Assembly: GCA_964420085.1 (NCBI GenBank)
Contig: CAYQRI010000001.1
Span: 31,372 to 95,371 of the forward strand
DNA length: 64,000 nucleotides
DNA from: an uncultured Ruminiclostridium sp.
GTDB lineage: Bacteria > Bacillota > Clostridia > Oscillospirales > Oscillospiraceae
Reading direction: 5' to 3'
The notes beneath the pieces were generated by a model, which made no database searches, was not told the origin of the DNA, and saw only the letters and a list, made by a program, of their open reading frames with translations. This document shows, one piece after another, positions 42,437 through 55,073 of the stretch. Position numbers and translations under genes: made by a program. Within the stretch, counting starts at the first letter, position 1; each line of letters opens with the position of its first letter.

Positions 42437-45400
42437 TCAGGTATTCAGCAGCTCCTGCCAATCGGCCTCCGTCAAGCCCTGCAGGGCGACACCACCTGAA
42501 ATCACGCCCTCAGCAAGCTCTGTTTTTTTCTCTTGCAGCTGCATGATTTTTTCCTCAATGGTCTTGCCGGTAATCAGCCGTATGACCTGCACAGGATTTT
42601 TTTGTCCCATCCGATACGCTCTGTCTGCCGCTTGATTTTCCGCCGCCGTATTCCACCACGGGTCATACAAAATCACGATGTCAGCCGCCGTTAAGTTCAG
42701 TCCCAAGCCACCGGCCTTTAAGGAAATCAGAAAAACATTGGTGGCATCCTTCTGAAATTTGCCGACCAGCTCTTGCCGCTTCTCTTTGGGCGTAGAGCCT
42801 TGAATGGTATAGGAGGAAATCCCATATCGGTCGAGCCTATCCCGTAGGATATCCAGCATGGAGGTAAACTGAGAAAACAGCAACACCTTATGTCCGCCAT
42901 CTACCGCTTCGTTCACAAGCTCCATACAAAGCTCCAGCTTTCCATTTTCTCCTTTATAATTTTCGTAGCAAAGCGAGGGATCGCAGCAAATTTGGCGCAG
43001 TCTGGTCAAAAGCGCCAAGATTTCCAGCTTACTTCTTTCCAGCTGTCCTTCTGCAATCACACGGTTTAAGCTGCCTTTTGCTTCCAGCAATGCTGCTGTA
43101 TACAGCTTTTTCTGCTCCCCTTCCAGATCAATCACCCGTATACTTTCTGTCTTGGGCGGAAGCTCCTTCAAAACCTCTGACTTCATGCGGCGGAGCAAAA
43201 ATGGTGCAGCCATTTTTTGTACATTTTCCAATGCCTTGGCATCTCCATCCTTAACGGCTGGAATTTCGTATCGCTCCTTGAACTTTGCATAGCTGAAAAA
43301 ATAGCCGGGCATCAGGAAATCAAAAATACTCCAAAGCTCAGAAAGCCTGTTTTCAACCGGCGTTCCGGAAAGCGCAAAGCGGTGTGCTGCTTGGATGAGC
43401 TTCACCGACTTCGCTGCCTTTGTCTTTGCGTTTTTAATCATCTGTGCTTCATCTATAATTTGATAGTCGAAGCGCACAGCTTCATAGAACATAATATCTC
43501 GCTTGAGCTGGTCGTATGAGGAAATTAGCACCTGATATTCTTTTGAATTCGCAATGATTTCCTTTCGCTCGGCCAGTGTCCCCACAAGTGCTTTCACTTG
43601 CATTTCGGGACAAAAGCGATTGCATTCACTTTTCCAGTTCAGAACCAGAGAAGCGGGGCAAACAACCAATGCAGAAAGACTTCCCTTCTCTAATTGGACT
43701 GCACGCAGCAGAGCAATGACCTGTAGTGTTTTTCCCAGCCCCATATCGTCTGCCAAGAGTCCATGAAACCCGTTTTCTGCAATACTTCTCAGGAAACGAT
43801 ATCCATTTTTCTGATAGGTTCTTAAAATCGGATTCAATTCCGGCGGGATGCTCCAATCGCTGTCCTCAGAGTTTTTCATATTACGAATCAGGGCACGCAG
43901 GCTGTCGTTTCGGTTATACTGCAAGCCCTCTCGCTTTTTCAGCATTGCATCGAGATACATAGCACGATAGAGCGGGAGTTGAATGGTACCCTTCTCCAAG
44001 GCCTCGGCCTTTAGGTCTAAATTCTCGGAAAGCTCCGCCAGCGTTTGCAGATCAGCATTCTCCTCTGTATTAAAATAGGTGCCATCTTTCAATCTGAAGT
44101 ACTTCCGTTTTTGCTTATAGGCCTCTAAAATTCCCTTCCATTCATCCATGGGAAGCTCTTGTGTCTCCAGATTCAGCTCCAGCAGCTCGGACTGTATCGA
44201 AACACCAAAGCTAATCTTTGGCACGACAGGTTTTCCGATGCGTGCCAACCGGTCAGATATTTCAATTTCCGCAAACTCGGAAAGATACGGAAGCGCATCC
44301 TCCAGAAAATGATAAATTTCTTCATCATCTCCTTCTAAGAAGAGGGTCTCCTCCTGTACCACCGGGAGCCACTGCTCCACATTGCGTACAAACCGCAGCT
44401 CATCGCCGAAGTTTCTGTGCTGCAAATCCTTTGGATTTTCCTTAATGGGATTGAAGGAATTTTCACCATAACGGATTTCCAGCTCTGCAACAATGGTATT
44501 GGCATCCTCTGCATCCAAACGAATGGAGAAATCTGGTTTGTGCGGAAGATAGTCCTCAAGCTCCTCTGTATCACCCGTTAGCTCTATAAATTGCTCAATT
44601 CTCGGGTATACCGTATAGAAAAAGGTTTGAATATCGTCCTTCGACAGCTGGAACCTATTCTGGTCATTCTGAAGCAACTGCAAAAGAGGCTCCATCGCTT
44701 CTTTATAGGCACGGTCTGTCTTATATAGCTTCTCATTTTGGATCAAATAGATCGACGAAACACCATGGATGCGTTCTATATCTGAAACGACCAGCCGTAT
44801 CCCCTCATCCTCTATCTTTTCAACAAGAATGGGGAGCTTTGGATTTTCTTCAAGAATTTGCAGGCTCCTTTTATTTCCATTTTTCCCCTCAATGGTGATA
44901 TCTTTTTCTCCTGCTATGTGGGAGTCCAGCAGCTTATCCATCAGCCAAGGGGTCACCGCAAGCTCTCCCCCAATATTTTTTCTGCCATAATAGGAATTGC
45001 TGCTCGAGCCACTGAGTGCACTGCAATATTCCAAAATCGCACGAAGCAAGCCACGATCCTCAGGTGCGATATCGGAAAAGCGATGGACGAAATGGAATTG
45101 TTTTCCATAGGCAAAGTCTTCCTCATTTTCGAAAAGCTCCACTAGCTTCGTAAAATCACGCACCACATATAGCTTTTCCCTGCCGATTGACAGTTTTAAA
45201 TAATAGCCATCATAATATCTCACAAGCTGAGTAGCCAAACGGACGGGCTGATTTGACCCCTGCGACGGATCATAGCTTTGTTCCTTTTCGACATATCGTT
45301 GGATTAAGATATTGGCATCTTCACTTGTAAAGAAGCCCTTTGGTTGTTTTCTCATATCAGAAACGGCGAGAAGCATAGCGACGATATGCTTACAAAAGCC

Positions 45401-45643
45401 ATCATAGGAATGAATGGCAGGACAGGTACAGGAATAGTCATCGACCTCCCCCTCCGAGTCCAAAAAAACAACGGGACGATAAAGCTCCGTACCCTGCACC
45501 ATCCCGAGATATCTGGTTGTTCCATCGGGAAGCTTCATGGTTCTGATTTCTTCAACGGCGCCCTCTTCATAATAATCCCATCCTTTTTGATAGGTCTTTT
45601 CTTTATATACATTGCTTTTAATTTGAGCAGCTAGGTCTTTCAT
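42437..45643 (-). CDS. SWIM zinc finger plus SNF2-family helicase
   Basis: CTCP...CKHIVA (SWIM), LADDMGLGKTLQ, DEAQMIKN, GTPVENRLSELWS, LISLKAGGLGLNLT, DRAYRMGQ. Confidence 0.95.
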   Translation of the reverse strand: MKDLAAQIKSNVYKEKTYQKGWDYYEEGAVEEIRTMKLPDGTTRYLGMVQGTELYRPVVFLDSEGEVDDYSCTCPAIHSYDGFCKHIVAMLLAVSDMRKQPKGFFTSEDANILIQRYVEKEQSYDPSQGSNQPVRLATQLVRYYDGYYLKLSIGREKLYVVRDFTKLVELFENEEDFAYGKQFHFVHRFSDIAPEDRGLLRAILEYCSALSGSSSNSYYGRKNIGGELAVTPWLMDKLLDSHIAGEKDITIEGKNGNKRSLQILEENPKLPILVEKIEDEGIRLVVSDIERIHGVSSIYLIQNEKLYKTDRAYKEAMEPLLQLLQNDQNRFQLSKDDIQTFFYTVYPRIEQFIELTGDTEELEDYLPHKPDFSIRLDAEDANTIVAELEIRYGENSFNPIKENPKDLQHRNFGDELRFVRNVEQWLPVVQEETLFLEGDDEEIYHFLEDALPYLSEFAEIEISDRLARIGKPVVPKISFGVSIQSELLELNLETQELPMDEWKGILEAYKQKRKYFRLKDGTYFNTEENADLQTLAELSENLDLKAEALEKGTIQLPLYRAMYLDAMLKKREGLQYNRNDSLRALIRNMKNSEDSDWSIPPELNPILRTYQKNGYRFLRSIAENGFHGLLADDMGLGKTLQVIALLRAVQLEKGSLSALVVCPASLVLNWKSECNRFCPEMQVKALVGTLAERKEIIANSKEYQVLISSYDQLKRDIMFYEAVRFDYQIIDEAQMIKNAKTKAAKSVKLIQAAHRFALSGTPVENRLSELWSIFDFLMPGYFFSYAKFKERYEIPAVKDGDAKALENVQKMAAPFLLRRMKSEVLKELPPKTESIRVIDLEGEQKKLYTAALLEAKGSLNRVIAEGQLERSKLEILALLTRLRQICCDPSLCYENYKGENGKLELCMELVNEAVDGGHKVLLFSQFTSMLDILRDRLDRYGISSYTIQGSTPKEKRQELVGKFQKDATNVFLISLKAGGLGLNLTAADIVILYDPWWNTAAENQAADRAYRMGQKNPVQVIRLITGKTIEEKIMQLQEKKTELAEGVISGGVALQGLTEADWQELLNT

Positions 45644-45712: not shown

Positions 45713-45875
45713 CTAGGGTCTGTTTCTCAAATCCCTAAAGTGCAATTTCACCACCTTGCCTTGCATATTTTCGTTAAAAGACCTCGCCTTAGCACCACTA
45801 AGGCTGCGTTTTTGCCTCGATCTGCAAGGCAATTTGGCGAAATTGCATCTTTTAGACTTTAGAAATACACCCTAG
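45713..45875. mobile_element. ~155-bp MITE-like palindromic element flanked by CTAG
   Basis: CTAG at 45713-45716 and 45872-45875; imperfect TIRs GGTCTGTTTCTCAAATC and GGTGTATTTCTAAAGTC (rc); nested internal inverted repeats. Confidence 0.6.
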
Positions 45876-45995
45876 TTATTTTATCACGCAAACAGAAAAT
45901 AATCTACCGTCCCACAGCGATACTTTTCGATAAGAAATCCACCAAAGACAGGCGGTGTGGTGCGCATCTGTCTTTGATGGATGATAAGTAATTCT

Positions 45996-47720
45996 TCAAG
46001 AGAGCTGTCTGAATAAAAAGGTCAAAAGCTGTGCTCTTGTGCACGCCCCTTCCGGCTGAAAGGATACCCCCGTTATTCCGTTTGTAATTCCTTTTTGTGT
46101 CGCCCAGAGAACCGCATCATAAAAATAGTCGGTCTCTGCCACATCTTCAAATGGATTCCTGCGGTTTTCCTGCTGGGCACCTGAGAAGCGCCATTGCAGC
46201 GTTACTGCTTGACCGCGTGTCAGCGTTCCATTCGGCTCGAAGGTACTGCTCCCCTCCACCAGACCACGCTCCACCGCCCAAAGAACGGCATCATGATAGT
46301 AGGCATCTGCTGCAACATCTCGAAATGGCGTTTTCGTTATCGTAGGCTTGGGGCTTCCGTTGGCTCGCCATAAAAATGTGACAGCTTGGGCTCGGGTTGC
46401 AGGCGCAGCGGGAGAAAAGGTCGTGCTTCCGGCACCTTCGGTAATGCCCTTCTTGAGCGCCCATTGCACGGCATCATAGTAAAAGGCTTCCTTGCTGACA
46501 TCTGAAAAAGGAAGCTCGATTGGTAAAGGAGATGGTTCACGGGAGCATAGCATATTGAGGTAGTGCTTTGGTGCATGGGCGGCGCCGACTGCCGAAAAAT
46601 CCACGGTATTCAGCAGGGCATACAGGGCGTACATGCCATTCTTTTGTTCATTCACTGAGGCAGGGGCTACCTTCGAAGTGGAAACCACATGCTCTGCCGT
46701 GCCCTCAGCGACGGCAACCTTCCCATACTTCTGTGCAAAATATGCCATCAGCAGCCTTTGATATCCATTTTTGTAATAGGCTTCTTTGCCACCCAAAATG
46801 GTATCTATTCTCATTAAGAGTGCTTGATTTTTGGCGTTATTTTCTTTGCTGCTGGCGGAGACTAAATACAAATCCTGTCCATATCGTCCATAGCCCCAAT
46901 CCTCTGACGGAAGCATTGTTACAAGGTCACCATCGTGCAGAATATTAAAAATATTTTGATTGACTGTCGCCACATCGACACTGGTGTTGGTCGTTGCGTT
47001 TGGTGTCGCAAAGGTATAGGCAAAGACATTCTGTGGTCCCACACGAGCGTTGAGTGCAGCTCCCACCAAATTGGAAACGGCTGCCGCTCGGCTGTAGCCA
47101 GTCACCCAATAAATGACCTCGCCCGTGGTTTGCGTCTGCGTCAAATAGGCATCCATTCTATCTAAGACCAGCGAAGCTGCGTAGGCAAACCCTGCATGAT
47201 CCTGCGTCAGCGTTCCCTCATCGCTTACGATTTGAAAGTTCCCTGCCCATTCGGCCTCATAGCCACTGCCGCTTATCACAATAGAGACCAGCGTTTTTGT
47301 CTGACCTGCTGCATTTGTCACGGGTTTGCGTCCGATTGCCGACGCAATGGAGGACGTGGTAGGCTTTGTATCATAGGCATCAAAACGCAAGTCCAAAAAG
47401 CCTGCCTGCTTGAATGTACCTTCGATATTTTTATGCTTGGTGTCGTAGCGCTCACTTCCTCCATCCGCACTGCGGAAGCCTGCCATAGCAAAGCCCAAGG
47501 AAAGCACCGCCAGCTCATGCTGATAGCTGAATGAATTGCCAAAAAAATAGTGATCCGAATATCTAACCATTTCTGTCTCTTCTCCATCTGTTTTTGGAAA
47601 CACAATGGAAACCTCCTTGGTCTGATCTGCACTGCCGGAGGTCACGCCCACGGCAGCGACTGAAGCTGTGGAAATCAAAACGCAAACGGCCACCAATAGG
47701 CTTGTCCCCCGTTTTTTCAT
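45996..47720 (-). CDS. Secreted lipase-3-like alpha/beta hydrolase with three SLH domains
   Basis: Signal peptide; WVTGYSRAAA nucleophile elbow, YTFATP, DLVTMLP, HAPKHY; C-terminal FSDVSKEAFYYDAVQWA-type SLH repeats. Confidence 0.8.
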   Translation of the reverse strand: MKKRGTSLLVAVCVLISTASVAAVGVTSGSADQTKEVSIVFPKTDGEETEMVRYSDHYFFGNSFSYQHELAVLSLGFAMAGFRSADGGSERYDTKHKNIEGTFKQAGFLDLRFDAYDTKPTTSSIASAIGRKPVTNAAGQTKTLVSIVISGSGYEAEWAGNFQIVSDEGTLTQDHAGFAYAASLVLDRMDAYLTQTQTTGEVIYWVTGYSRAAAVSNLVGAALNARVGPQNVFAYTFATPNATTNTSVDVATVNQNIFNILHDGDLVTMLPSEDWGYGRYGQDLYLVSASSKENNAKNQALLMRIDTILGGKEAYYKNGYQRLLMAYFAQKYGKVAVAEGTAEHVVSTSKVAPASVNEQKNGMYALYALLNTVDFSAVGAAHAPKHYLNMLCSREPSPLPIELPFSDVSKEAFYYDAVQWALKKGITEGAGSTTFSPAAPATRAQAVTFLWRANGSPKPTITKTPFRDVAADAYYHDAVLWAVERGLVEGSSTFEPNGTLTRGQAVTLQWRFSGAQQENRRNPFEDVAETDYFYDAVLWATQKGITNGITGVSFQPEGACTRAQLLTFLFRQLS

Positions 47721-47750: not shown

Positions 47751-48164
47751 TCACGCCAAAAGTCCCACCACAACGCCGAGGGCAAACCCGGCAATCACTT
47801 GAAAGATATTGTGACCACAGACCTCTTTGATGATATTATAATCGAAGTTTGTTAAGTCATTCAATTTCTCATGCAATTCGTTCAAAGCCTTCGCTTGCAG
47901 TCCGACAGATTGTCTGACCCCCACGGCATCATACATCACGACAAAGGACAAAACCACACACACACCAAACAGGGAGGAATATAGCCCCTCAACTAAGGCG
48001 ATTTTGGTCGTTGCCGCCACCACAAATGCCGTATGGGAGCTGGGCATTCCTCCCGACGACATCAAAATTCCTAAATTGAATTCTTTCGTTTTAATGCATT
48101 CAAGAACGATTTTTATGAGTTGTGCAATAAACCATGCTGCGGCCGCCGTTAGTATGATGTACAT
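47751..48164 (-). CDS. Divergent PAP2 family protein (DUF212)
   Basis: AQLIK, SSGGMPSSHTA, VMYDAVGVR, GH...QV..G. Confidence 0.9.
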   Translation of the reverse strand: MYIILTAAAAWFIAQLIKIVLECIKTKEFNLGILMSSGGMPSSHTAFVVAATTKIALVEGLYSSLFGVCVVLSFVVMYDAVGVRQSVGLQAKALNELHEKLNDLTNFDYNIIKEVCGHNIFQVIAGFALGVVVGLLA

Positions 48165-49194
48165 ATCCGCCCTCCACCTGCTTCATACAATAATTTCGGT
48201 TTCCATTCATGCGGTAGACTTGAATGAGCTTTTTTCCCATCTCTCGCATACTTCGGTTCTCTGCGACCTCTAATCCCTCCTCCGTCAGGGAGGGCAAGGC
48301 GTTTGCAAGGATGTCCTCCGTCAAGGTCTGAAACTCTGCAAGGGAGCTGCCCTTGTAGCAATTTACACCGCTTTGGAGCCAGCCTTCGTAGACGGGAATA
48401 TCCCGAAGCAAGACAGGAATGGAGCACGCCAGCGCCTCCAGCACAACAATGCCTTCGGTTTCCTCGTGGCTGAGAAAGGCGAATAGATCTGCACCGCAGT
48501 AGGCATCCCGAATGACTTCCTTATCAACGAAGCCGGCAAACAGAACATTTTCGGGTGCCTGACGAACGGCTGTCTTCACAGCATTGGTCATCAGGCTTTC
48601 TGCTGTTGCACCAAACCAGATAAATTTGAGGCTCGGATGCTTGCTTGCTAGGGCAAGAAAATCCAGAATTCCCTTTCGCTCAATCAAATGTCCCGCAGAA
48701 ATGACCACCTTTTCATCCTCTGCAATGTGATAAGCGGCACGAAAGCGTTCTCTTGCCTCTGGTGTTCGTTTAAAATATGTAGTATCGATTCCGTTTGACA
48801 GTGCATAGATCGGCTTTTGAATGCCATAGCTTTCTAATATTCGTTTGGAGTATTCCGTGGGGGTGATCACGATGTCACCCAAGCTATAGCAAAAGGTGAT
48901 CCATTTTCTAAAGAGAGGAGATAAGAGGTTTGAGCCTTTGATGGAATTGCGGAAGTCCTCCTCTGTGGAATGCCCGTAATAGACCACGGTTTTCTTTTGC
49001 CGTCTCGCACGCAGAGCAGCGAGCACAGATTTGGGAAAAACGGTATTGATATGAATGGTATCCACAGCGGGGGACGGACGTTCCTCCGTGGATATTCCCA
49101 CCTGCTTGAGCATTTCCTTTTGATGCAGAATGGCCTTCCCGACCCCACTGTTTTTTACCATGGGGTAATCCCCCATGTATAATTGCACAGACAT
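48100..49194 (-). CDS. Glycosyltransferase family 4 (diglycosyl-DAG synthase/CpoA-like)
   Basis: SGVGKAI.HQ, HSTEEDFRNS, SNGID, ETEGIVVLEALA, LLRDIPVY; GGAGG RBS. Confidence 0.85.
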   Translation of the reverse strand: MSVQLYMGDYPMVKNSGVGKAILHQKEMLKQVGISTEERPSPAVDTIHINTVFPKSVLAALRARRQKKTVVYYGHSTEEDFRNSIKGSNLLSPLFRKWITFCYSLGDIVITPTEYSKRILESYGIQKPIYALSNGIDTTYFKRTPEARERFRAAYHIAEDEKVVISAGHLIERKGILDFLALASKHPSLKFIWFGATAESLMTNAVKTAVRQAPENVLFAGFVDKEVIRDAYCGADLFAFLSHEETEGIVVLEALACSIPVLLRDIPVYEGWLQSGVNCYKGSSLAEFQTLTEDILANALPSLTEEGLEVAENRSMREMGKKLIQVYRMNGNRNYCMKQVEGGYVHHTNGGRSMVYCTTHKNRS

Positions 49195-49218
49195 TTTAAT
49201 TGCCTCCATCCTCTCTAT

Positions 49219-50985
49219 TTATACGGAAACTGTCCCGAGAAGTGTCACCACTCTCTGCCAAATCACGGTTAATCCAAAGCTATAGGCAGCGATGGAAGGA
49301 ATTTTACCGGCTAAAATCGTACCTGTAAAATACCGCCAGCTCATTTGTGTAGTACCCGCTAAATAGCACAGAAAATCATCGGGAGCTACCGGAAGAAAAA
49401 TGGCCCAGGTAAACATCTTATTGAAGCGATCCTTTTTGCTGGTCCAGCTTTGGTATTTGTGAATCAGCTGCCTGGAAAACATGAGATGCATCACACGCTG
49501 ACCAAAATTCTTGGAAATGGCAAAGACCAAGAGAGAGCCAATGCAAATGCCGATATAGTTATAGACAAAGCCATACAGCCCGCCAAATAGAATCACGCCA
49601 GCCAGGCAACCCAACCCCCCTGGGATAATGGGAACCACCACCTGTGTAATTTGCAAGAAAATGAAGAGCAGCGGCGCAAAAATTCCAACCTGTGTCACCA
49701 ATTCCTGCAAGGACTCCACGGAGGTAAACCAGCCGTTTTGATAGCCATAGCAGGTGAAAAAGATACAAAGCACCAACGAGGCGATTGAGCCAAAGGTTCC
49801 AATATGCCTTCCTCTGCCACTATAGTAGGTTCTGCTGTTGATGAGTTCAAGATAAATTTCCTCGATGCTTTTTGCAAAATGCTCAATGGAAAATTTCTCC
49901 ACACTGGTTTGGATGGTATGCGGAGACGCCAAAGCAAGCGCTTGGCTCTCGCAGGGGGCGCAATACTGTGAAAGGTGCGTGTGAAAGTCTTCCTCTGTTT
50001 CGTAAAAGAATCCATTCTCCCCTTCCACAAGGATATCCTTCAAGCAGTCATCCTTGCGACACAGGAGGGGTGTTCCGCTCGCCAAGGCTTCAATATAGGT
50101 CAGCCCTTGTGTTTCACTATTGGAAGCGCTGAGGAACACATCGGCAAGCCGATAATAGAGAGGAATTCGTTCCGGATCCACCATCCCGGCAAAGAGAACC
50201 TTGTCCTCTGCGTGAAGCGTATGAACCAGCGCCTTCAAATCCTCCAGTCTGGGTCCGTCGCCTACAATGAGAAAGACTGTTTTTTCCATTGTGCGGTTGG
50301 TGAGATAGGTAATCAGCTCCTCAATATTTTTCTCTTTTGAGACACGGCTGACAGACAGCAGGATTTTATAATCCTTGGGGATGGAAAGCTCTGCTCTGAG
50401 GGCATCCAGCTCCTCCTGTGCAATCTCTTGTTTGAATTTAGATAGGTTGATACCCGAAGGGGTGACCTTTACGGGGCTTCTCAGTGCGTATCCCATCAGC
50501 ATAGACTGCACCTTTGTGGTGGGTGCTACGATGGCATCACAATGTCTGGCCACCGCTCTGGTAAACTGTCTGACCACCTTTTTCCCCACGGTTTTACTGG
50601 GGGAAAAATAATGGGTATAGTCCTCATAAACCGTGTGATAGGTATGCACCAACGGGATATTCAGTTTTTTTGAAATAGTCTTTGCAACGGGGAAGGTGCT
50701 AAATTCAGTTTGAGAATGTATGATATCAGGCTTCCAATCGTAAATGTGCCGCATAATTCTTTTACAGGGGGCGATTTTGATTCGGACATCGGGATAAATG
50801 ACCTCTCCGCTGACGGAACCGATATAATAGTTGTTCCCTTTGATTTCATTTTTTCCTGTACTGGATAAGGTCAGCACTCTGACCTCGTGACCCAGCGTCT
50901 CGAGTCCTGTCTTCAAATTTATAATCGACGTCACGACGCCGTTAATTGTTGGTACATAACAATCGGATGTGATTAGGATTTTCAT
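49219..50985 (-). CDS. Glycosyltransferase family 4 (monoglucosyl-DAG synthase-like) fused to a TVP38/VTT (DedA) domain
   Basis: MKILITSDCYVPTINGVVTS, HTYHT, SETQGLTYIEALASG; C-terminal ~200 aa QVVVPIIPGG...FLPVAPDDFLCYLAG; one continuous frame. Confidence 0.85.
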   Translation of the reverse strand: MKILITSDCYVPTINGVVTSIINLKTGLETLGHEVRVLTLSSTGKNEIKGNNYYIGSVSGEVIYPDVRIKIAPCKRIMRHIYDWKPDIIHSQTEFSTFPVAKTISKKLNIPLVHTYHTVYEDYTHYFSPSKTVGKKVVRQFTRAVARHCDAIVAPTTKVQSMLMGYALRSPVKVTPSGINLSKFKQEIAQEELDALRAELSIPKDYKILLSVSRVSKEKNIEELITYLTNRTMEKTVFLIVGDGPRLEDLKALVHTLHAEDKVLFAGMVDPERIPLYYRLADVFLSASNSETQGLTYIEALASGTPLLCRKDDCLKDILVEGENGFFYETEEDFHTHLSQYCAPCESQALALASPHTIQTSVEKFSIEHFAKSIEEIYLELINSRTYYSGRGRHIGTFGSIASLVLCIFFTCYGYQNGWFTSVESLQELVTQVGIFAPLLFIFLQITQVVVPIIPGGLGCLAGVILFGGLYGFVYNYIGICIGSLLVFAISKNFGQRVMHLMFSRQLIHKYQSWTSKKDRFNKMFTWAIFLPVAPDDFLCYLAGTTQMSWRYFTGTILAGKIPSIAAYSFGLTVIWQRVVTLLGTVSV

Positions 50986-51542
50986 ATACAACCACTCCTT
51001 TCTTCCTCTTTCATGCTTATTGTACATGATAATTCTTGATTCTTTGTAGTAAAACTTTTAAGATTCATTTAAGAATTTCAAAGCATTTAACCGTGGAATT
51101 TTGCAAGAATCGATCTGATTTCTATTTTTCTCCTAATCTCATATAGTATACCACATTCCCTGTACATTTGCTTCCCTTTCGCTTCCCTTTTGCTTTCTAT
51201 TTTGGAGAAATATCAAGAAAATTCAAATATCATATGCTAACCGCCAACGCCTTTCTTCTTCTGCGTTTTGATGCCATGTATCCGCCCTATTTCGGCAGTG
51301 CCAAACAAAAACCTTGGTAAAGCGGCATAATTTGTGCTTTGTTTTCCAAAAGTTTATGGTATACTATAAGAGTTTGAGAGTCCACCGATTCATATCCATA
51401 AAAAATCCCGAATGGATCGCATTACAATACGAATGGAATCAGTGGCTCCCAGCGTCGCAGAGTTCACAGCGGGAACGAAACCCCGTGAACTTCTGGCTGA
51501 AACTATCCGCAGAGCTATGCTCTGCCCTATATGGAGGTCCTC

Positions 51543-53381
51543 ATGGATCATAAACTGGAAAAAATCTTAACTCGTGTGCAGAAGCCCGGTCGTTATGTGG
51601 GGGGCGAATACAATGCCGTTCACAAAGACAAGGATACCGTGGACTGTCGCTTCGCCTTCTGCTTCCCCGACACCTATGAAATTGGTATGTCAAACCTAGG
51701 TCTGCGCATTCTTTACGGTGTCATCAACAAGCTGGAGGGGGTATGGTGCGAGCGTGTCTTTGCTCCTTGGGGCGATATGGAGCAGGAAATGCGGAACGAA
51801 GAGCTTCCCCTTTACGCATTGGAAAGCGGCGACCCCATCGCCTCCTTCGATATGATTGGCTTCTCCCTGGGCTATGAAATGGCATATACCAACATTTTGA
51901 ATCTCTTGGATTTGGCAGGAATCCCGCTGGAAAGTGAGGACAGGCCAGACCTCACCCCCATCATTGTAGCCGGGGGAACCTGTACCTATAACCCCGAACC
52001 CATTGCCCCGTTCGTTGATATTGTTTCCTTGGGGGAAGGTGAGGATGTCACCGTCGAAATGATTGCCCTTTACCGCACGGCAAAAAAGGAGGGCTGGTCC
52101 AAGCAGGAATTTTTGCAGAAGGCTGCCCAAATCCCGGGCTTGTACATTCCCTCCCTCTATGAGATTTCCTATCACGAGGACGGCACCATTTCTGCCATAA
52201 CGCCTAAGGAGGGTGCGCCGGAAACGGTCTGCAAGCGTTTGGTCAAGGATTTGAATACGTCATACTATCCCGTCGAAACCATCGTTCCCTCCACAGAAAT
52301 CACCCACGACCGTGTCATGCTGGAGCTGTTTCGTGGCTGTATCCGTGGCTGCCGCTTCTGTCAGGCTGGCTTTGTCTATCGTCCCGTGCGCGGACGCACC
52401 CACGAGCTTCTGGCGCAGCAGGGGATTGATGCCTGCAAGGCATCGGGCTATCAGGAAATGACGCTGATGAGCCTTTCCTCCAGTGACTATCCCGACCTGC
52501 TGCCGCTCTGTGATGGTCTACTGGACTGGTGTCAGCCAAACAAAGTGAACATTTCGCTGCCTTCCCTGCGTGCTGATAACTTCTCGATGAGCCTGATGGA
52601 GAAGCTGCAGAAGGGCGGAAAAAAGAGCGGACTTACCTTCGCCCCCGAAGCCGGCTCGCAGCGTCTGCGGGATGCCATCAATAAAAATGTCACGGAGGAG
52701 GATCTGCTCCATTCCTGCCGCACGGCCTTTGCCGGTGGTTGGAGCAGCGTGAAGCTTTACTTCATGCTTGGTCTGCCCACCGAGACCGATGAAGACGTTT
52801 TAGGCATTGCGGAGCTTGCCACCAAGGTTTACCATGCTTGGCGAGAGAGCACCCCTAACTCCTCTCGTGGCGTGCGGATTACAGTTTCTACCTCCTGCTT
52901 CGTGCCAAAATCCCACACACCCTTTCAGTGGGAAGCACAGAATACCCAAGAGGAGTATTTACGCAAGGTAAACCTGTTGCGTGGTGCCATCCGCAATAAA
53001 TCCATCACCTATAACTGGCACGATCCCGAGACAAGCTTTTTAGAAGCCGCTCTGGCTCGTGGTGATCGCCGTATGGCCGCCGTCATCAAGGCCGCTTGGA
53101 AAAACGGCGCAAAGTTCGACTCTTGGAGTGAATATTTCCACCTGCAATACTGGCTGGATGCCTTCGAGAGCTGTGGGCTATCCCCTGCATTTTATGCCAA
53201 CCGAGCGCATTCTACGGACGAAATCCTGCCTTGGCACATCATTTCTGACGGTGTGAAGGAAAGCTATCTCCGGAAGGAACGCGACCAAGCCTACGCAGGG
53301 GTCATTACACCGGATTGCCGTGAAAAATGCTCCGGCTGCGGTGCCAATAAGCTTTGCGAAGGAGGGCTTTGTCATGGCTGA
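51543..53381 (+). CDS. TIGR03960 family B12-binding radical SAM protein
   Basis: VQKPGRYVGGE, FPDTYEIGMSNLG, RGCIRGCRFCQAG (CxxxCxxC), FAPEAGSQRLR; GGAGG RBS before 51543. Confidence 0.92.
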   Translation: MDHKLEKILTRVQKPGRYVGGEYNAVHKDKDTVDCRFAFCFPDTYEIGMSNLGLRILYGVINKLEGVWCERVFAPWGDMEQEMRNEELPLYALESGDPIASFDMIGFSLGYEMAYTNILNLLDLAGIPLESEDRPDLTPIIVAGGTCTYNPEPIAPFVDIVSLGEGEDVTVEMIALYRTAKKEGWSKQEFLQKAAQIPGLYIPSLYEISYHEDGTISAITPKEGAPETVCKRLVKDLNTSYYPVETIVPSTEITHDRVMLELFRGCIRGCRFCQAGFVYRPVRGRTHELLAQQGIDACKASGYQEMTLMSLSSSDYPDLLPLCDGLLDWCQPNKVNISLPSLRADNFSMSLMEKLQKGGKKSGLTFAPEAGSQRLRDAINKNVTEEDLLHSCRTAFAGGWSSVKLYFMLGLPTETDEDVLGIAELATKVYHAWRESTPNSSRGVRITVSTSCFVPKSHTPFQWEAQNTQEEYLRKVNLLRGAIRNKSITYNWHDPETSFLEAALARGDRRMAAVIKAAWKNGAKFDSWSEYFHLQYWLDAFESCGLSPAFYANRAHSTDEILPWHIISDGVKESYLRKERDQAYAGVITPDCREKCSGCGANKLCEGGLCHG

Positions 53382-54045
53382 TCAACGTATTCTTTTTTCC
53401 AAAGGGGATGCCGCAAGCTATAGCTCGCATTTGGATTTGATGCACACCATGGAGCGTGCCTTTTTGCGTGCGGGCATCTCCATTCGCCACACAGAGGGCT
53501 TTCATCCCCATCCCTATGTCTCAATCCCTCTGCCCTTGCCGTTATTTTTCTCCAGTGACTGTGAAATTTTAGAGTTCGGTTTGGTTTCCGGCGCAACTGT
53601 CGAAACCCTACCCGAAAAAATGAACCGTGTTCTTCCCAAGGGCATCGAAATTCGAGTCTGTTACGAGGGTGGTCTTCCCTTTCGAAAGCTCTCCTTTGTC
53701 CGCTATCAAATCACCTTGGAATTTGAAACCCCGCTCGCAGAGCAGGCAGAGTCTGCCTTCCGTGCGCTTCTTTCCAGAGAAAGCTTTGTGGTGAAGAAGC
53801 GCAGCAAGAAGGCAAAGAGCGGCTTTACTGAGGTCGATATCATTCCTCTCGTGGAGGACGTGGAATCCATACAAGCGGAGGGAAGCACACTTACCCTTAC
53901 ACTGCTTTTAAAAGCCCAAAATCCGGGGCTCAATCCTGACGTTTTGCTGCAAGGCTTTCGTGCGGAATACCCTGCATTTCCCATTGCATATTCCGCCTGT
54001 CACCGTTGTGAAATTCTGGACGACCAAAAACAGGTTTATCGGTAA
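53374..54045 (+). CDS. TIGR03936 (DUF2344) radical SAM-associated protein
   Basis: FSKG...YSSHLDLM...ERAFLRA...TEGFHPHP; overlaps the upstream radical SAM gene. Confidence 0.88.
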   Translation: MADQRILFSKGDAASYSSHLDLMHTMERAFLRAGISIRHTEGFHPHPYVSIPLPLPLFFSSDCEILEFGLVSGATVETLPEKMNRVLPKGIEIRVCYEGGLPFRKLSFVRYQITLEFETPLAEQAESAFRALLSRESFVVKKRSKKAKSGFTEVDIIPLVEDVESIQAEGSTLTLTLLLKAQNPGLNPDVLLQGFRAEYPAFPIAYSACHRCEILDDQKQVYR

Positions 54046-54152: not shown

Positions 54153-54851
54153 TTAGAAATCAGGCATCTCAAAACGAAGCGCCCAAGGCTCCTCCTGCAT
54201 TTTTTTTATTGCATCTGGATCCCCCCGTGCCGCCTTCTCCGATTCCAAATCCATTCGCACTGCGAGGATATTCTCCCGCCCAGACGGATACTCCTTCAGA
54301 TCATGCACACGCCATCCCAATCCGTGTATAAAGTGAATGGCATCTCCTACGCCTTGTTCCGCTTCAACCTCCAGATAGAATGACAAATTCGTGGGAACCT
54401 TTAAGTATTTATTATCTAGGACACTGACAAAAACCAGAACAACAATCAGGAGAACATACATAATTCCTGCGCAGACGTAAAAACCAACACCGACTGCAAT
54501 GCCCATGCAAGCCGTTGCCCAAAGGGTGGCCGCTGTCGTTAAGCCCTTGATTTCATTTCTGCGTGTGATAATAATGGTGCCGGCACCCAAAAAGCCGATG
54601 CCGCTGATCACCTGTGCACTCAATCTTGCTGGATCGCCCACACCATAGCTGGCATAAAGATATTCGCTGACCAGCATGGTAGAGGCTGCCCCGATACAGA
54701 GCAGCATATGCGTGCGCAGGCCCGCCGCCCGTTGCTTTTGTCCCCGCTCAAACCCAATGGTTCCACCAAAAAACAGAGCCAGCAACAGGCGGATAAAAAC
54801 AGACATGACATTGAGATCTCTCAGTTCTCCGATGAGCTCTAATTGAATCAT
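54153..54851 (-). CDS. MgtC/SapB family membrane protein
   Basis: IGFERG...AAGLRTH, DPARLSAQVISGIGFLGAG, GLTTAATLW. Confidence 0.93.
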   Translation of the reverse strand: MIQLELIGELRDLNVMSVFIRLLLALFFGGTIGFERGQKQRAAGLRTHMLLCIGAASTMLVSEYLYASYGVGDPARLSAQVISGIGFLGAGTIIITRRNEIKGLTTAATLWATACMGIAVGVGFYVCAGIMYVLLIVVLVFVSVLDNKYLKVPTNLSFYLEVEAEQGVGDAIHFIHGLGWRVHDLKEYPSGRENILAVRMDLESEKAARGDPDAIKKMQEEPWALRFEMPDF

Positions 54852-55073
54852 GACTACACCCTCTTTCTGCATCCACATTTTCACATATAAGTATAGCATT
54901 ATATGCTATTATATTGCCATGTTTTCTATAAGTTGTCAAACAAATTAAACAGTATCTCCGACTAATTGGGATGAAGCTTGTTTAAACTCACTATAGATGA
55001 TTGCTTTTTTTCCAGAAATGGGCTATACTGACCCCATTCACCATTTCACTTTACGCTTTGAAAGGAGCACACT

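Follow-up and report, generated by a model that had tools for sequence, protein, structure and literature searches.

The genome of an uncultured Ruminiclostridium sp. (GenBank assembly GCA_964420085.1; Bacillota, Oscillospiraceae) contains an operon in which a family 4 glycosyltransferase (GT4) and a TVP38/TMEM64-type membrane domain of the DedA superfamily (the VTT domain) are encoded as one polypeptide. Here we describe this fusion gene, located in a 64,000-nucleotide (nt) stretch of contig CAYQRI010000001.1 (positions 31,372 to 95,371 of the forward strand; hereafter the window), and the related loci found in other genomes. The fusion recurs as the rarer variant of a more widely distributed operon of three genes, in which a first GT4 (GT4a), the VTT protein and a second GT4 (GT4b) are encoded side by side. 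The sequences directly show what the domains are, their topology, that the fusion recurs and that its neighborhood is conserved. From these findings we consider it somewhat more probable than not that the two GT4 enzymes make glycosyl-diacylglycerols (glycosyl-DAGs) and that the VTT domain moves the lipid between the leaflets of the membrane.

To our knowledge, passage of glycolipids across the cytoplasmic membrane is known only for Staphylococcus aureus, through LtaA. Glycolipid transporters are unknown in most Firmicutes (PMC3089915; PMC11804483), and Bacillus subtilis is without a homolog of either LtaA or LafC (PMC3089915). The flippases of phosphatidylglycerol (PG) and DAG were still drawn as unknown in 2025 (PMC11804483).

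The fusion gene and its partner glycosyltransferase

The fusion gene, its two parts and the gene for the second glycosyltransferase have the following coordinates in the window, with the supporting evidence in brackets.

49219..50985, minus strand: fusion gene, Mgs-like GT4 joined to a TVP38/VTT membrane domain, 588 amino acids (aa) (single open frame, Pfam, NCBIfam, AlphaFold2)
49831..50985, minus strand: GT4 catalytic part of GT-B type, residues 1-385, with E291-x7-E299 (Pfam, alignment, Foldseek)
49222..49812, minus strand: membrane part, residues 392-588, with the first transmembrane helix (TM1) and the VTT core (PF09335, about 49276-49614) (Pfam, ESM Atlas, charge, alignment)
48100..49194, minus strand: second GT4 (GT4b), IagA/BgsA/LafB-like, predicted diglycosyl-DAG synthase (NCBIfam, ribosome-binding site (RBS), synteny)

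A scan for open reading frames (ORFs) places four minus-strand genes head to tail (fusion gene, GT4b, DUF212 and lipase-SLH), the first three ORFs lying at 49219..51027 (602 aa), 48100..49209 (369 aa) and 47751..48164 (137 aa). The scan and the Pfam matches agree with the tight packing of GT4(+VTT), GT4 and divergent PAP2 genes given in a first-pass annotation, which had been made from the DNA letters alone. The probable start of ORF1 is the ATG at 50985, with GAAAGGAG just upstream; it coincides with the end coordinate of the first-pass annotation, whose coordinates prove correct. As the same annotation had proposed, the frame runs without a stop from GT4 into VTT, and all three Pfam domains are found in it: Glyco_transf_4 (110 bits) and Glycos_transf_1 (101 bits), both within the first ∼385 residues, and VTT_dom (PF09335, 70.6 bits against a gathering cut-off of 33.9) in the C-terminal part. 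The probable start of ORF2 (GT4b) is the ATG at 49194, which has GGAGG 8 nt to its 5' side and leaves a gap of 24 nt to the fusion gene; an alternative start lies at 49209, and the alignment to the NCBIfam model begins at residue 6.

The best NCBIfam match of GT4a is the alpha-monoglucosyl-DAG synthase Mgs (NF049988), aligned over its full length (1-390 of 398). GT4a thus appears Mgs-like by best match, yet its score of 258.6 bits is lower than the equivalog cut-off of 400 and puts it outside the Mgs equivalog set. GT4b matches the model for the lipoteichoic acid (LTA)-anchor glycosyltransferases IagA and BgsA (NF053513), also over the full length (1-330 of 333), with 454.5 bits, 6 short of the cut-off of 460. 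It further matches the processive diacylglycerol glucosyltransferase Dgs (315 bits) and, in Pfam, GT4 families. Both enzymes are accordingly of the glycolipid type that the first-pass annotation had assigned to them, and the pair is read, from these profile matches, as a monoglycosyl-DAG synthase and a diglycosyl-DAG synthase. Each is single-copy in the genome (2.0 Mb, 90.8% complete), and GT4b adjoins the GT4a or fusion gene here and in almost all related loci.

The N-terminal part of the fusion protein is a GT4 enzyme by its GT-B fold, its domains and the EX7E signature of retaining GT4 enzymes, of which E291 and E299 are invariant in 24 fused homologs. The AlphaFold2 model of the fusion protein has a mean predicted local distance difference test (pLDDT) of 83.7, and a Foldseek search with the whole model returned GT4 enzymes only (among them MshA, BshA and PimA, E about 1e-19).

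Recurrence of the fused form

A search of 5.8 billion proteins for the fused architecture identified ∼55 protein clusters from several sources that share both architecture and length, at 42-87% identity; one of the fused clusters is found on 108 contigs, including one of 3.1 Mb. In contigs sampled at one genome per species, loci were called fused when a single stop-to-stop frame contains both the GT4a and the VTT match. By this measure 5 of the 48 species-representative loci with VTT are fused (an uncultured Eubacteriales bacterium, Pygmaiobacter, two Faecalibacterium species and a contig binned as Oxalobacter), and the other 43 have adjacent split genes. Other assemblies thus carry the fusion as well. 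The free-standing VTT protein of ∼200 aa is the commonest form. A VTT profile search of 1.84 billion cluster representatives returned 209 proteins at E ≤1e-30, and the best 150 of these 209 are mostly 195-260 aa long, with three full-length fusions (579-616 aa) and about nine proteins carrying partial N-terminal extensions, which are probably truncated fusions.

The commonest form is a split one with overlapping genes, so that a one-base error could join the two genes, and an assembly or frameshift artefact has to be weighed. Against it, fused proteins of equal length occur at 87, 84, 57, 53 and 50% identity in independent assemblies, the fused state is seen in five species representatives, and the clade of the window stays fused down to 53% identity. 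Because the fused state recurs in independent assemblies, the fusion is neither chance nor a frameshift error, and we give an artefact practically no credence.

A gene tree built on GT4a+VTT of 49 loci requires three changes of the fused state, and well-supported branches force at least two of them. The fused groups are the window with locus L001 (53% identical to each other), a Faecalibacterium group and Pygmaiobacter. That the fusion arose repeatedly and was kept for long speaks for a functional partnership of the two domains.

Conservation and distribution of the GT4a-VTT-GT4b module

In the 43 split loci the order is nearly always GT4a, the ∼200-aa VTT gene and GT4b, with frequent overlap between the VTT gene and the stop of GT4a. 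The module is found in Oscillospiraceae, Lachnospiraceae, Bacillaceae, Carnobacteriaceae, Finegoldia and Sphaerochaeta. Split forms are present in Oscillibacter and other Oscillospiraceae, Coprococcus comes, Lactonifactor, Finegoldia magna, Dolosigranulum pigrum and other Carnobacteriaceae, and also in Cytobacillus, Gracilibacillus, Aquibacillus, Ornithinibacillus, Saccharibacillus, Sphaerochaeta and another spirochaete. Three loci (L025, L057 and L042) have a different order, which is VTT-GT4b-GT4a in two of them (Candidatus Copromorpha and a metagenome-assembled genome of Lachnospiraceae) and GT4a, a different GT4 and VTT in the third (Lactonifactor). The trio stays together despite this shuffling of gene order.

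These genome loci were picked with patterns from both domains, and the test was repeated from a VTT-only alignment, with 80 metagenome loci chosen by two VTT peptide patterns alone and no selection on glycosyltransferases. GT4a and/or GT4b directly adjoin VTT in 78 of the 80, a count that overstates independence, the loci being mostly human-gut relatives of one another; the taxonomic spread of the genome loci is the stronger point. Of the two exceptions, one is too short to judge and one has 4 kb of upstream sequence without GT4a. The latter carries an orthologous VTT gene (L117, 4001-4537; 57% identity), and may represent a rearrangement or a free-standing copy. The conserved operon in other genomes strengthens the association of synthase and VTT domain that the first-pass annotation had drawn from the fusion.

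The operon is accessory and patchy, since the five nearest sampled relatives have no ortholog of either GT4a or GT4b; this says nothing on function. Among 300 genomes drawn evenly from the window's phylum, a scan with the VTT part returned only generic TVP38 paralogs of at most 41% identity and no other ortholog of the module VTT. Orthologous VTT proteins start at about 44% identity. Twelve of the scan loci were fetched, and tblastn puts the four best at 37-42% identity to the VTT part; neither these four nor the eight weaker ones have a GT4 neighbor.

The module is also seen in genomes of Sphaerochaeta/Spirochaetaceae and on contigs binned as Oxalobacter, Lentisphaeria and Senegalimassilia (L041, L069, L070, L007, L064 and L080). 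In the tree the spirochaete and oddly binned contigs nest inside Bacillota clades, and these odd placements reflect either horizontal transfer or mis-binning. Together, the patchiness and the nested contigs suggest horizontal spread of the module.

The VTT membrane domain

The assignment of the C-terminal part to the DedA superfamily as a TVP38/TMEM64-type domain, already made in the first-pass annotation, agrees with both the Pfam match and the ESM Atlas neighbors. A feature search of the ESM Atlas gave 30 matches, all to clusters with PF09335 (VTT); the three listed are named TVP38/TMEM64 (score 0.96). The neighbor clusters are 193-207 aa long and mostly from Bacillota, and the closest annotated relatives are TVP38/TMEM64 proteins, not those of the DedA/UptA type. 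No solved relative of the VTT part was found by sequence or profile search of the PDB.

In the AlphaFold2 model the last helix of the glycosyltransferase domain (367-390) leads almost straight into TM1 (392-416). The linker residues RGRH directly precede TM1, the loop past TM1 is acidic, and the long loop at 495-525 is strongly basic. Because basic residues lie before TM1 and acidic ones after it, the GT4 domain is predicted by the positive-inside rule to be cytoplasmic, as GT4 chemistry requires.

The alignment contains 22 invariant VTT columns common to fused and split forms. The polar residues Q445, Q448, N476, S484 and K561 are invariant in both, and at least 90% of the sequences keep D536 and D537. 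Two motifs are conserved, P452-x2-P455-G456 and P532-x2-P535-D536-D537. Together with the short helices 436-450/456-467 and 520-530/536-544 of the model, they would be compatible with the two re-entrant helix-loop regions, with Pro/Gly and flanking transmembrane helices, of VTT domains. Since polar membrane residues are kept in fused and split forms alike, this conservation pattern argues against a role as a mere anchor.

The genome encodes a second VTT protein of 249 aa, which is 30% identical to the VTT part (L082, 1270-2019; G000:C1:9551-9988). Its gene is situated between those of a sodium symporter and an ABC ATPase, and it is a generic TVP38 paralog without glycosyltransferase neighbors.

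Other genes of the operon and its surroundings

Further features of the operon are as follows.

47751..48164, minus strand: DUF212 'divergent PAP2' small membrane protein, 137 aa (PF02681, PAP2-like motifs, RBS)
45996..47720, minus strand: Lipase_3 and three SLH domains, secreted wall-anchored protein (Pfam SLH 116.8 bits in three stretches, Lipase_3 33.9 bits)
51026..51053, minus strand: promoter-like site 5' of the fusion gene, TTTACT-16-TATCAT, 9 of 12 matches (weak; such sites are no commoner in the region than in shuffles)
45786..45955, minus strand: terminator-like hairpins 3' of the lipase-SLH gene (weak evidence)

The DUF212 gene starts at 48164 with GGAGGG upstream, and overlaps the non-conserved tail of GT4b by 65 nt. 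This tail extends ∼35 aa past the end of the family model and covers the DUF212 start (48100-48164, minus strand), resembling a lost stop codon or a recent junction. The lipase-SLH gene begins 31 nt past DUF212 and has its own RBS. Between 47720 and 50985 there is a single terminator-like match, which is weak and lies inside the DUF212 gene (47990-47974, 3 G-C pairs).

ORF3 matches DUF212 (PF02681) with 145.8 bits and has PSSH and other PAP2-like motifs. The first-pass annotation had suggested that this PAP2-like protein supplies DAG to the pathway, an idea that the neighborhood comparison does not bear out. DUF212 adjoins the module in none of the 80 metagenome loci, and lies within 6 kb of it in only 1 of the 48 genome loci with VTT, 3.2 kb away. 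At this locus (L065) genes for ferredoxin, DapF and a dicarboxylate symporter lie between the module and DUF212, and the proximity looks like coincidental synteny. In some Oscillibacter-type genomes (L039, L044, L045 and L065) DUF212 is situated 3-4 kb downstream of the GT4a gene. DUF212 is thus in the operon here, yet is no conserved member of the module.

No homolog of the lipase-SLH protein was found next to the module in the 48 genome or the 80 metagenome loci. SLH-domain matches are present on about 20 other contigs of the genome, and for this reason the cell probably has an S-layer or secondary-wall-polymer envelope.

Downstream of the operon lies a gene for a SWIM/SNF2-associated helicase (1068 aa; 42437-45643, minus strand). 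On the other side of the operon, at 51531-54045 on the plus strand, are a gene for a B12-binding-like radical SAM protein (PF19864 and PF04055, 616 aa) and an overlapping DUF2344 gene, in a stretch with a GC content of 0.53-0.55, above that of the glycolipid operon. An MgtC-family gene (54153-54899, minus strand) lies past this pair.

Proposed function and alternatives

In the proposed pathway, the cytoplasmic GT4 domain of the fusion would glycosylate diacylglycerol at the inner leaflet, as do Mgs, LafA and BgsB, and the downstream GT4b would add a second hexose, as do BgsA, IagA and LafB. The TVP38/TMEM64-type VTT domain, a member of a superfamily of lipid scramblases and flippases, would then move the glycolipid made beside it between the leaflets, in line with the synthase-flippase fusion suggested in the first-pass annotation. 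By analogy with DedA domains that move the lipid made next to them, the substrate is proposed to be glycosyl-DAG, or possibly its precursor DAG. Such transport would populate the outer leaflet, and would supply the anchor where a wall polymer is built on glycolipid; fusing the two parts would fix a 1:1 ratio and put the synthase beside the transporter. A broader proposal, which we put forward only tentatively and hold to be somewhat less probable than not, is that the ∼200-residue TVP38/TMEM64 subfamily, with about 200 clusters at 50% identity, is a dedicated glycosyl-DAG translocator of many Bacillota and some Spirochaetota.

The first-pass annotation had suggested an LtaA-independent route, which may apply here, but supply of bulk glycolipid to the outer leaflet is at least as likely as a role in anchoring LTA. 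The one LtaS-like protein of the genome (614 aa, sulfatase domain at 244-530) scores 26.8 bits against an LtaS equivalog cut-off of 970, and DltD was not found in this genome. The LtaS equivalog model has no match in five module-bearing genomes, including Faecalibacterium and Finegoldia; this is weak evidence, the model being so narrow that among the controls only B. subtilis scores above the cut-off. The module is present in Sphaerochaeta as well. No protein of the operon has a Pfam match to the major facilitator superfamily (MFS), to which LtaA belongs.

Several points weigh against glycolipid translocation by the VTT domain. Transport and substrate are read from gene context, and we infer which sugar is added, which lipid is moved and that transport takes place at all. 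With both glycosyltransferase scores below their equivalog cut-offs, sugar and acceptor are not certain for either enzyme, and the relatedness of the metagenome loci lessens the weight of their count. No VTT is found nearby in 32 of the 80 GT4a loci, so the pathway can run without VTT, which is not essential to it. Many bacteria with the same glycosyltransferase pair, including enterococci, streptococci and Listeria, are without such a VTT gene. In addition, bacterial DedA proteins of the TVP38 type are without an assigned substrate, and Todor et al. 2023 tie the subfamily to aerobic metabolism.

Transport in the opposite direction would turn the fusion into a salvage device, in which the VTT domain returns outer-leaflet DAG inward and the fused GT4 re-glycosylates it. 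This would account for VTT being fused or adjacent to the DAG-using GT4a and not to GT4b, and the outer-leaflet DAG would come from LtaS-like or other lipid-consuming reactions, the genome having one LtaS-like protein. DAG is, however, generally held to cross bilayers quickly unaided, and the module is also present in genomes without a match to the LtaS model used. Even with the DAG and PG flippases of B. subtilis called unknown in 2025 (PMC11804483), we regard salvage as unlikely. A little less likely again is a VTT domain without transport activity. As an anchor, scaffold or regulator it would keep the GT4 enzymes membrane-bound or adjust what they do to the state of the membrane. Such a role would suit the absence of VTT from many organisms that run the pathway. 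GT4 glycolipid synthases such as the Acholeplasma MGS are peripheral membrane enzymes sensitive to lipid composition, and any fused membrane domain would anchor them. An anchor would not, however, need 22 invariant columns, many of them polar, in predicted membrane helices or re-entrant loops of fused and free-standing proteins. Nor does it fit with the free-standing 200-aa VTT being the commonest form, or with the implication of every DedA-superfamily member of known role in lipid transport.

It is also conceivable that the VTT domain recycles polyprenyl phosphate in the manner of UptA, with DUF212 as the matching pyrophosphatase and the GT4 enzymes building a carrier-linked glycan. Synteny and fusion of DedA and PAP2 are a published signature of undecaprenyl phosphate recycling, and a divergent PAP2 gene is situated two genes downstream here. 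This association dissolves in the wider comparison given above, with no adjacency of DUF212 in the metagenome loci and a single genome locus where unrelated genes intervene. The published PAP2 fusions are moreover in the COG0586 subfamily, whereas the domain here is of the TVP38 type, and GT4b matches DAG-glycolipid enzymes over its full length at a near-equivalog score. We consider polyprenyl phosphate recycling very improbable, and translocation of glycosyl-DAG is retained as the favored explanation.

Implications

The recurrent fusion and the tightly conserved operon name one candidate protein and one candidate lipid. If glycosyl-DAG translocation is correct, this would be the first substrate assignment for a bacterial DedA protein of the TVP38 type, and would add a second route, outside the MFS, by which glycolipid anchors arrive in the outer leaflet; the fused forms would hand the product straight from synthase to transporter. 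The proposal is open to testing, since the carriers of the module include cultivable species (Dolosigranulum pigrum, Finegoldia magna and several Bacillaceae) and abundant gut commensals (Faecalibacterium, Oscillibacter and Coprococcus comes).

Comparison with known systems

UptA and the DedA-PAP2 pairs resemble the locus described here in that a DedA-superfamily protein is encoded near a PAP2-like phosphatase gene. In the published cases the lipid is undecaprenyl pyrophosphate and the DedA protein is of another subfamily (UptA preprint; Todor et al. 2023), whereas the PAP2-like gene here is an unconserved DUF212 and the conserved neighbors are DAG glycosyltransferases.

A pair of GT4 enzymes encoded in an operon is shared with LafA/LafB(/LafC) of Listeria, BgsB/BgsA of Enterococcus, IagB/IagA of Streptococcus and Mgs/Dgs of Acholeplasma. 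These carry no VTT gene, whereas the present module has an extra DedA-superfamily domain that is sometimes fused to the first enzyme. Listeria LafC is likewise an extra membrane protein sharing a glycolipid operon; it has eight transmembrane helices, is not related to LtaA and is without a known role. A parallel between LafC and DUF212 was considered and dropped on the published description of LafC.

LtaA of S. aureus is encoded with a glycolipid synthase (ypfP-ltaA) and is the proposed outward carrier of the diglucosyl-DAG anchor. It has a proton-coupled major facilitator fold of 12 helices, unlike any domain here. MprF also combines a cytoplasmic lipid-modifying domain and a membrane domain that moves the product outward in one polypeptide. 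Its enzyme and the fold of its flippase differ from those here, and its domains come in the reverse order; its transport role is reported to have been tested experimentally (PMC11980842).

The closest parallels are found within the DedA superfamily itself, whose members with known roles all function in lipid movement: TMEM41B, VMP1, UptA (undecaprenyl phosphate) and PetA (phosphatidylethanolamine, PE) (PMC10193950). The petA gene is situated between pssA and psd (Roney & Rudner 2023, PMC10193950), and fusions of other DedA domains with lysyl-PG synthase, CDP-alcohol phosphatidyltransferase and phospholipase D have been taken as evidence that these domains move the lipid made by the adjacent enzyme (PMC10193950). 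A glycosyltransferase or glycolipid partner of DedA is not mentioned in PMC10193950, the UptA preprint, Todor et al. 2023 or the results of full-text literature searches. The coupling of DedA proteins to lipid synthases is thus already known, and the glycolipid version appears to be new. As in the published cases, the DedA-superfamily protein is located between, or fused to, enzymes of one lipid class, and both forms occur. The published partners are enzymes of PE and lysyl-PG synthesis, CDP-alcohol phosphatidyltransferases and phospholipases D, whereas here the domain is of the TVP38/TMEM64 type and the proposed substrate a neutral glycolipid, which would extend the rule that a DedA protein is found beside the synthase of its lipid from phospholipids and polyprenyl phosphates to neutral glycolipids.

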